DNA of 64,000 nucleotides from an uncultured bacterium. GTDB lineage: Bacteria > SAR324 > XYD2-FULL-50-16. Shown here piece after piece: positions 19,035-20,112 of this stretch. The stretch covers positions 2,280 through 66,279 of the forward strand of contig CBFCZY010000016.1 in assembly GCA_965602905.1 (NCBI GenBank), read 5' to 3'. The notes below the pieces were generated by a model that worked only from the letters and a program-made list of their open reading frames with translations, ran no database searches and was not told the DNA's origin. The first letter of the stretch is position 1. Each line of letters opens with the position of its first letter. The position numbers and the translations under genes were made by a program.

Positions 19035-20042
19035 CTACTTAAAAGAAGCCAAAAGTTGGCTGTTTTTGGGGTGCTTGCCTAGGAGTTCGATCAACTTTTC
19101 AATGGCACCTCGATCATTTTCTTTTCCCAAGGTGCGGTAAAGAGTATTGAGTTGTTCATATTCTTCAGGCTCAAATAAAAGCTCGGCTCTGCGAGTAGCA
19201 CTTTTCAACACATCAATTGCAGGGAAAAGACCATTTTGCGCCAGTTTTTTAGAGAGTACCAATTCCATGTTTCCTGTGCCCTTGAATTCTTCAAAGATCA
19301 CTGTGTCCATGGCGCTTCCTGTATCCACTAAAATGGTAGCGATAATGGTGATGGAACCTGAATCTTCAACGTTGCGAGCAGCACCAAAAATTCGACGAGG
19401 GATTTCCATAGCCCCTGCGCCCATACCACCTGACATGGTTTTTCCACCACTGCGGTGATTGGTGTTGTGCACCCTTGCCAAGCGAGTCAAGGAATCGAGC
19501 AGGATCATTACATCATGCCCTTCTGCGGCCTCTTTGAAGGCCTTAGATATTACTTGGTCAGCCACTTTAATATGTTCTTCTTGGCCTTGGTCCATTGAAG
19601 AAGAGTAGACTTCTGCGGTCACGCCACGTTTAAAATCCGTTACCTCTTCTGGTCTCTCATCAACCAGTAGGCAGAAGACTTTCATGTCGGGGTGGCCTTC
19701 TGTGACAGCCTTACAAATATTCTTTAAAAATGTCGTTTTTCCAGAGCCTGGTGAGGACACAACCAGTGCACGTTGACCCATACCGATGGGGCAAATTAGA
19801 TCCAGCGCACGGACAGATAAATCATCACTACCCTTTTCTAAGATAATACGAGGGTAGGGGTTGATAGCCGTCCCGCCTAAAAACCGTTTTTCTTCTATGG
19901 ATTGACTTGGTTTTTTTGGGGCGTTGCCATGTTGGGAGCGTTGCTGCGGTCTTCGTTGCTGGCTTTTGCCTTGGGGCTTTGTGCCTTCTGGTCTTTTGCG
20001 TCTATGTTGGATGGGGTCTCGTGGAAAATTCGTTTTGGACAG
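19035..20042 (-). CDS. Rho-family transcription-termination ATPase homologue lacking the N-terminal RNA-binding domain; start codon unresolved (possible pseudogene)
   Basis: From ATG 19781 the sequence reads [19 protein letters not shown] (Walker A) ..[68 protein letters not shown], closely matching the E. coli Rho C-terminal domain. Homology ([34 protein letters not shown]) and the open frame continue upstream to the TAA at 20043-20045, but that stretch has no in-frame ATG, GTG or TTG. No Rho_N or OB-fold domain is encoded. Confidence 0.7.
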   Translation of the reverse strand: [335 protein letters not shown]

Positions 20043-20112
20043 TTAATCTTTAGGCCATTCTATGAAGAAGCTGGGCTGGTGTCAAGCAACCCCTTTGCAG
20101 CTCCTTTGCCCC

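Follow-up and report, generated by a model that had tools for sequence, protein, structure and literature searches.

The primary binding site in the N-terminal part of the transcription termination factor Rho is usually regarded as the element with which Rho finds its RNA targets. Here, we describe a Rho-like gene whose product lacks this part of the protein. The gene lies on the minus strand of a 64,000-nucleotide stretch of DNA from an uncultured SAR324 bacterium (contig CBFCZY010000016.1, positions 2,280 to 66,279), which was analysed as a whole and is referred to below as the window. All coordinates are those of the window, and features of the gene are on the minus strand. The proposed coding sequence (CDS, 19035..20012) comprises 325 codons and a stop codon, and runs from a putative ATC start at 20012-20010 to a TAG at 19037-19035. 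We consider it likely that the product is a functional Rho motor of 325 residues, started at the ATC, with a disordered basic tail (net charge ~+10) in place of the N-terminal domain.

Compared with canonical Rho (E. coli P0AG30; PDB 1PV4, 3ICE, 5JJI and 8Q3N), the window protein is 46-47 % identical over the connector and the ATPase domain, and differs in that a disordered basic tail of ~40 residues replaces residues 1-~129, Lys181 is replaced by Gly, and the putative start codon is ATC. In a recent survey, which took in 2,730 genomes, Rho was counted as functional only when an RNA-binding domain was present, and proteins with the ATPase domain only were classed as 'Rho-like' and not as 'functional Rho' (Moreira et al. 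2024, PMC11347177). The 'Type 4' proteins of Moreira et al., the shorter part of their 'Group B', are also shortened, second-copy forms of Rho that often have a basic start, and the short Rho of Catenuloplanes begins MSPTHTLDRHATTRRRARKPQQ, a basic stretch as in the window protein. However, Type 4 retains the OB-fold RNA-binding domain and lacks the helix bundle (PMC11347177), whereas the window protein lacks both, and membership of the window protein in Type 4 was rejected because its RNA-binding domain is absent. The low-complexity Arg-rich segments of the Rho proteins of Mycobacterium tuberculosis and Bacteroides, reported there to raise RNA affinity or to drive condensation (PMC11347177), are added to an intact N-terminal domain, whereas in the window protein the tail replaces the domain.

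The NCBIfam model NF041509 ('Rho, short form') appears to cover Type 4-like proteins. The window protein matches only positions 64-359 of this 360-position profile, with 304.5 bits against a cutoff of 628, and P0044, P0001 and L022, which belong to the family described below, behave in the same way. As the first ~63 profile positions are unmatched and the score is below the cutoff, membership in this family was also rejected. An actinobacterial protein that has kept the OB fold (L075) aligns over positions 1-360 with 550 bits, also below the cutoff. The short proteins described here fall in the 'Rho-like' bin of Moreira et al., a catch-all covered only in the supplement of that paper, and the main text mentions no Nitrospirota, no tail-plus-motor family and no start codon (PMC11347177). 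No published description of this family or of its start codon was found in the literature, the 'Rho-like' supplement not being covered.

On translation of the window, the Rho-like frame is open from an in-frame TAA (20043..20045), which falls within the predicted 5′ leader, down to the TAG at 19037-19035. An earlier note on this DNA had described a basic stretch rich in Lys, Arg, Gln and Pro that is bounded upstream by this TAA, and the translation agrees. Counted from the proposed start, the protein consists of a basic low-complexity N-terminal tail (residues 1-40; 19893..20012), with 6 Arg, 5 Lys and 1 Glu in its first 38 residues, a connector (residues 41-77; 19782..19892) that equals E. 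coli Rho ~130-169 and is near-invariant in the short family, and a RecA-type Rho ATPase domain (19038..19781), defined from a residue table against E. coli Rho, invariant columns and PDB alignments. At the junction of connector and domain lies an internal Met78 (19779..19781; the M of PIG-M-GQR), the sole canonical start codon in the frame and the one from which gene callers obtain a 248-aa product.

A phmmer search against PDB sequences aligned residues 42-318 with residues 130-409 of E. coli Rho (1PV4; E = 5e-76), which places the truncation point at E. coli residue ~130. The sole Pfam domain is the generic ATPase PF00006. The NCBIfam Rho model NF006886 scored 359.4 bits against a cutoff of 315 with only positions 123-412 of 413 aligned, and TIGR00767 scored 337.5 bits, below its cutoff of 509.45. 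The claims of the earlier note that the C-terminal part is a Rho ATPase motor, and that homology continues upstream of the ATG at 19781 from E. coli residue ~130, both stand.

Neither the helix bundle Rho_N (PF07498) nor the OB fold Rho_RNA_bind (PF07497), which forms the primary YC site, was matched in the window protein by Pfam, even at E <= 1. As the Rho_RNA_bind model detects the OB fold of a full-length relative with 62.7 bits, the absence of this fold from the window protein is real. The whole N-terminal domain, helix bundle and OB fold, corresponding to E. coli residues 1-~129, is missing, as the earlier note had claimed. The possibility that Rho is split, its N-domain lying in an adjacent gene, was also considered and rejected, as tblastn searches with the N-domains of the E. 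coli and Elusimicrobia proteins found no Rho N-domain elsewhere in the 64-kb window or in the sequence flanking the short-form loci.

A second copy of the locus was available in an independent ENA contig (L001), which is identical to the window letter for letter across 19700-20200, including a run of seven A (A7, 19917-19911) and the region without a canonical start codon. L001 is from another strain; its Rho-like gene and that of the window have 2 differences in 975 nt, and the adjacent DDAH-like proteins are 97 % identical. An orthologue was found in a SAR324 metagenome-assembled genome (MAG; L002, GCA_033791585.1) that keeps both downstream genes, the ArgZ-like protein being 82 % identical and the DDAH-like protein 74 %. 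In the window, the ArgZ-like gene (17003-18217) and the DDAH-like amidinotransferase gene (18214-19014) are on the plus strand, overlap by 4 nt and are convergent to the Rho-like gene; the pair (17003-19014) is conserved in L002.

The comparison of the orthologous locus and the ratio of nonsynonymous to synonymous divergence (dN/dS), both of which the earlier note had proposed as checks, were informative. Calculated by the Nei-Gojobori method for the window against L002, dN/dS was 0.062 over the 282 codons of the connector and motor (dS 1.41) and 0.154 over 42 codons of the tail, the latter a rough estimate as dS, at 2.3, is near saturation. Purifying selection acts on the whole gene, tail included. 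A decaying paralogue of rho, the first of three explanations offered by the earlier note, is excluded by the value of 0.06 in the core, and disagrees also with the identical second strain, the value of 0.15 for the tail, the intact catalytic residues and the existence of at least 136 relatives with the same architecture.

A related explanation is that the start was lost through a sequencing or assembly error, such as a miscounted A7 run. An out-of-frame ATG (19930-19928) lies upstream of the slippery-looking A_AAA_AAC that contains the A7 run at 19917-19911; a run of eight A would join this ATG to the Rho frame, and A_AAA_AAC is a classic slippery heptamer. However, both the A7 run and the ATC recur in the contig from the second strain; the ATG and the run are both missing from L002 and from a more distant relative, L101; and family-wide conservation at the protein level extends to the part of the tail upstream of the run. 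A frameshift or miscount joining ATG 19930 to the gene was rejected on these grounds, and we give next to no probability to the gene being either a pseudogene or the product of such an error.

Relatives were collected from a search of 5.8 billion proteins, by scanning GTDB species genomes and JGI metagenomes, and by look-up of specific proteins. Among the matches listed from the protein search, at least 120 clusters share 66-82 % identity with the window protein; nearly all are 315-330 residues long, and the named ones are labelled only 'transcription termination factor Rho'. Where taxa are named, they are Nitrospirota (including Thermodesulfovibrionia), the PVC group and SAR324. Members at 52-65 % identity were found in Omnitrophota, uncultured Planctomycetales and Desulfococcaceae. 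At least 136 distinct short proteins were extracted from 160 loci, and all have the tail-connector-motor layout, namely a low-complexity tail of 25-50 residues, the motif EK.F(L/F).G.(A/P).(N/D)P.PRI.LE.GS and the Rho ATPase domain. The window protein has the tail, the motif, the ATPase domain and the Gly at the P-loop Lys181 position that define the family. By a crude rule the median tail length is about 26 residues, and the pooled tails of all relatives contain 19 % R, 14 % S, 12.5 % P, 8.5 % N, 8 % Q and 7 % H.

A rough neighbour-joining tree places the short forms in a single group on a long branch apart from full-length Rho, and on clustering at 50 % they shrink to a handful among about 1,700 Rho-like representatives. 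The short-Rho family is therefore small but real. All short-form loci from the GTDB species scan come from MAGs or other environmental draft assemblies. No conserved partner gene emerged from all-against-all clustering of the flanking ORFs (open reading frames) of 138 loci, nor within the 19 Nitrospirota loci. Matches to PF24404 in some relatives are sub-threshold P-loop matches to a STAND NTPase model and were set aside as not meaningful.

Three further short Rho-like cluster representatives, P0129 (328 aa), P0148 (314 aa) and P0127 (365 aa), are 46-48 % identical to the window protein, and their lineages may have lost the N-terminal domain independently. A different rearrangement was seen in Planctomycetota (L065:1687-3879, L059, L064, L066, L067 and L074), where full-length Rho is fused N-terminally to dephospho-CoA kinase (CoaE); the Pfam scores for L065 are 102 bits for CoaE, 63 bits for Rho_RNA_bind and 99 bits for the ATPase.

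To map the motor residues, 58 short and 24 full-length sequences were aligned and the positions were given their E. coli numbers. K184, T185, E211, R212, E215, D265, S266, R269 and R272 are kept in 57-58 of the 58 short forms, as are G287-G288, T323, S325, M327-D328, E334, K336, G337 and R366. The window protein has the Walker A and B motifs, the catalytic Glu211, the Arg212 valve and the Arg366 finger. In its own numbering, the Walker A motif SPGSGKT is encoded at 19757-19734, the catalytic Glu and the Arg valve (E119/R120, in DERPEE) at 19658-19653 and the Arg finger (R274) at 19193-19191; Walker B is D173, the Q-loop spans residues ~183-197 and the R-loop TGSAMD residues 231-236. Both loops of the secondary RNA-binding site are kept, the Q-loop with K/R283, S286 and G287-G288, and the R-loop as T323-G-S-x-M-D. 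The R-loop Lys326 position is Ala in the window protein. This was considered as a mark of a crippled channel and rejected, because the position also varies in the full-length comparison set (T, V, Q, R or K).

An AlphaFold2 prediction made with a 54-sequence alignment had a mean predicted local distance difference test score (pLDDT) of 85.8, with residues 1-31 below 50 and the remainder in the Rho C-terminal fold. The top PDB matches in Foldseek were E. coli Rho chains (TM-score 0.82, 1.9 Å over 283 columns). The tail is thus both selected (dN/dS 0.154) and predicted to be disordered (pLDDT <50 over residues 1-31).

Enumeration of every in-frame codon from 20042 to 19782 found no ATG, GTG or TTG upstream of the internal ATG at 19781, and the only NTG codons in this interval were CTG 20042 and CTG 19805, exactly as the earlier note had reported. 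The open stretch before the first canonical start is 87 codons; of the window's 45 ORFs with >=150 aa, none has a longer start-less stretch, and the runner-up has 48. Odd start codon usage throughout the genome was considered and rejected, as no other ORF in the window has a comparable stretch. Conservation of the tail at the protein level throughout the family requires initiation upstream of it, between the TAA at 20045 and ~19990. Three codons in this interval are in-frame candidates, CTG 20042, ACG 20033 and ATC 20012, the last of which was not among the candidates of the earlier note.

From comparison with relatives, we infer that the ATC at 20012-20010 is most likely the translation start. 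This near-cognate codon aligns with the ATC at L002:6001, the annotated start of the SAR324 protein P0001 (MQDRHKKPAG...), and with an ATC at L101:2504. The start regions read CACGAG-ACCCC-ATC in the window, ATAGAG-ACCCC-ATC in L002 and ATAGAG-TCCCCC-ATC, with a 6-nt spacer, in the more distant L101 (71 % identity), compared with TAAGGAG-TATAT-ATG in the Nitrospirota relatives and TAAAGAG-TATAT-ATG in L091. As the (A/G)GAG-N5 layout is shared with these relatives, the ATC would occupy the slot of the family ATG. The 14-nt block GAGACCCCATCCAA (20007..20020), which holds a weak Shine-Dalgarno (SD)-like GAG, a 5-nt spacer, the ATC and the next codon, is unchanged between the window and L002 despite saturated synonymous sites (dS 1.4-2.3). 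Non-canonical initiation, the second explanation of the earlier note, thus agrees with the conservation of the tail and with the alignment of ATC 20012 with the family ATG and the annotated start of P0001.

In a crude tally of start codons over 136 proteins of the family, there were 120 ATG, 5 TTG, 4 GTG and 7 with none. Four of the seven are genuine (L002, L083, L084 and L166) and are from two ATC clades; the remaining three (L132, L146 and L159) are artefacts, with very short tails containing a Met. The second ATC clade (L083:2444-2560, L084, L163:757-880 and L164-L167) has an invariant TAAGGAG-N5-ATC AAA AAC AGA AAA AAG, and its tail begins IKNRKK. Six positions downstream, at the site that a gene caller would otherwise take as the start, the codon in this clade is ATG, GTG, GTA or AGG, and the database products have scattered internal starts and 284-296 residues (P0052, P0053, P0058, P0061 and P0076). 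The ribosome-binding element is a weak GAG in the clade of the window and a strong AAGGAG in the second ATC clade.

The closest known cases are E. coli infC and pcnB, both with AUU starts, in which, as here, a conserved AUH codon lies at the position of the AUG in relatives and low expression is expected. The window codon, a candidate start proposed from sequence comparison, differs from these in being AUC. By the same comparison, the locus has the features expected of an AUH start, that is, no upstream canonical start, a conserved AUH at the orthologous position and a ribosome-binding element. In E. coli, initiation at AUC is ~1-2 % of that at AUG (0.02-3 % depending on the construct), and Met is incorporated (bioRxiv 10.1101/063800).

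Several observations tell against the ATC. The SD-like element ahead of it is GAG alone, while several genes in the window have AGGAG or GGAGG; CTG 20042 is in frame, as is ACG 20033, which lies in an AAA-ACG-AA that L002 shares with the window; and in L101 an upstream in-frame ATG means that the ATC is not forced there. A start at CTG 20042 or ACG 20033 has nevertheless only a slim chance of being correct. CTG is a near-cognate codon with a strength in E. coli about equal to that of AUC (bioRxiv 10.1101/063800), but L002 lacks it at the corresponding site, and its distance from the predicted start of transcription is about 8 nt. The ACG belongs to the weakest class of start codon and is without a preceding SD-like element, and neither codon is aligned with the family ATG, as the ATC is. 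As to L101:2294-2504, which is on a 128-kb metagenome contig, the frame is open above GAG-N6-ATC and the annotated protein P0027 (375 aa) begins 42 codons upstream, at an ATG. Its N-terminal extension is non-basic and absent from every relative, and P0027 is probably an over-extended gene call.

If, on the other hand, ATG 19781 were used, the only product would be a 248-residue ATPase core without tail or connector. This is the sole canonical start codon in the frame, and P0002 has been called in this way. However, the 77 codons upstream of it are conserved as protein, with a near-invariant connector and a dN/dS of 0.15 in the tail; Met78 is replaced by K or R in some relatives; no SD motif precedes the ATG; and the 87 open codons without a canonical start are the extreme for the window. 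We consider this very improbable, and ATC 20012 is retained as the start in what follows.

The gene is probably driven by its own sigma-70-type promoter, for which the candidate is TTGACA-17-TAGAAT (20057..20085), predicted from a match to the consensus at 11 of 12 positions. Transcription would start near 20050, giving a C/A-rich 5′ leader of ~38 nt, and no structure is predicted for the leader and first codons (68 nt; minimum free energy -0.3 kcal/mol). The equivalent in L002 is TTGACG-18-TAGTAT at a matching distance, and in both SAR324-type loci the promoter-like sites are 45-54 nt upstream. The candidate promoter and the leader also count in favour of the ATC as start. The upstream ORF (20113-20739) ends 67 nt from the in-frame TAA and 100 nt from ATC 20012. 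Over its first ~160 nt (20050-19890), the predicted transcript contains 69 A, 50 C, 27 G and 15 T (C/G = 1.85). This C-rich, G-poor composition resembles that of a Rho-utilisation site and is also explained by the Lys, Arg, Gln and Pro codons of the tail. Rfam and tRNA scans of the window gave no matches.

Because the Walker A and B motifs, the catalytic Glu, the Arg valve and the Arg finger are retained, we propose that the protein builds a Rho-like hexameric ring in which ATP would be hydrolysed at the subunit interfaces. The retained Q and R loops would draw single-stranded RNA through the central channel. Six basic tails at the entry face may stand in for the sequence-selective, YC-reading crown, capturing RNA electrostatically and with little sequence preference; alternatively, the tails may dock the ring onto a partner. 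The weak AUC start would probably keep the protein scarce. That the protein forms hexamers and translocates along RNA, and what its tail does, we infer from canonical Rho as the model.

The earlier note had listed a decaying paralogue, non-canonical initiation and a Rho motor recruited by a basic tail as separate explanations. The first fell, and the other two hold together and are not alternatives. With regard to the third, a basic tail in place of the OB fold was borne out, and recruitment by that tail stays at the level of a proposal.

A functional motor without an N-terminal domain also has to be set against two facts. All of the 58 short forms have Gly at the P-loop Lys181 position, where the 24 long forms all have Lys or Arg. 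Lys181 is a contact in the bicyclomycin pocket. Further, the primary binding site is required for RNA loading by canonical Rho (review PMC12360218).

A different role for the protein would be that of a modulator subunit, which co-assembles or competes with a full-length Rho encoded elsewhere, dilutes the RNA-reading crown and so tunes termination. The spread of the family over phyla is patchy, with all loci of the GTDB scan from MAG or environmental draft assemblies, and the identity between phyla is unusually high (71-78 % for SAR324 against Nitrospirota types). The neighbourhood is not conserved, even among the 19 Nitrospirota loci, which fits an accessory gene better than a sole housekeeping rho; a weak start codon would suit a low-dose regulator; and hetero-hexamers have been proposed for other second copies of Rho (PMC11347177). 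However, identity between the motor domain and the full-length Rho of other bacteria is no more than 44-50 %, which makes mixed rings uncertain, no Rho N-domain was found in the 64-kb window or in the flanks of the 160 loci, and the conserved basic tail suggests a nucleic-acid-binding role of its own. We regard a modulator as unlikely, and a motor acting with its own tail is the reading that we prefer.

Going further, the family could be a distinct and self-sufficient class of Rho that loads without a sequence-reading crown, by means of six basic tails or a partner, that is the sole Rho in some uncultured lineages (Thermodesulfovibrionia, Omnitrophota and SAR324), and whose dosage is throttled by AUC in at least two clades. 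This extended version is speculative and, in our estimate, unlikely to hold in full. If true, it would mean that Rho-type termination or RNA surveillance is possible without a primary binding site.

The family is a conserved and so far unstudied Rho motor without the N-domain, seen only in uncultured bacteria and hitherto hidden under a plain 'Rho' label and, in two clades, behind truncated gene calls. For annotation this is a practical problem, as standard gene callers shorten the genes of the ATC clades to 248-296 residues and the plain 'Rho' label used in pipelines conceals both the absent domain and the unusual start. The putative near-cognate start, kept across saturated synonymous divergence, would extend the few known conserved bacterial starts that are not AUG, GUG or UUG. 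Spread over several phyla and under strong purifying selection, the family has kept the motor residues and discarded the N-terminal domain, and it therefore amounts to a natural experiment on what a Rho ring can do once the crown is gone, and on whether a short, basic, disordered tail is able to take the crown's place.

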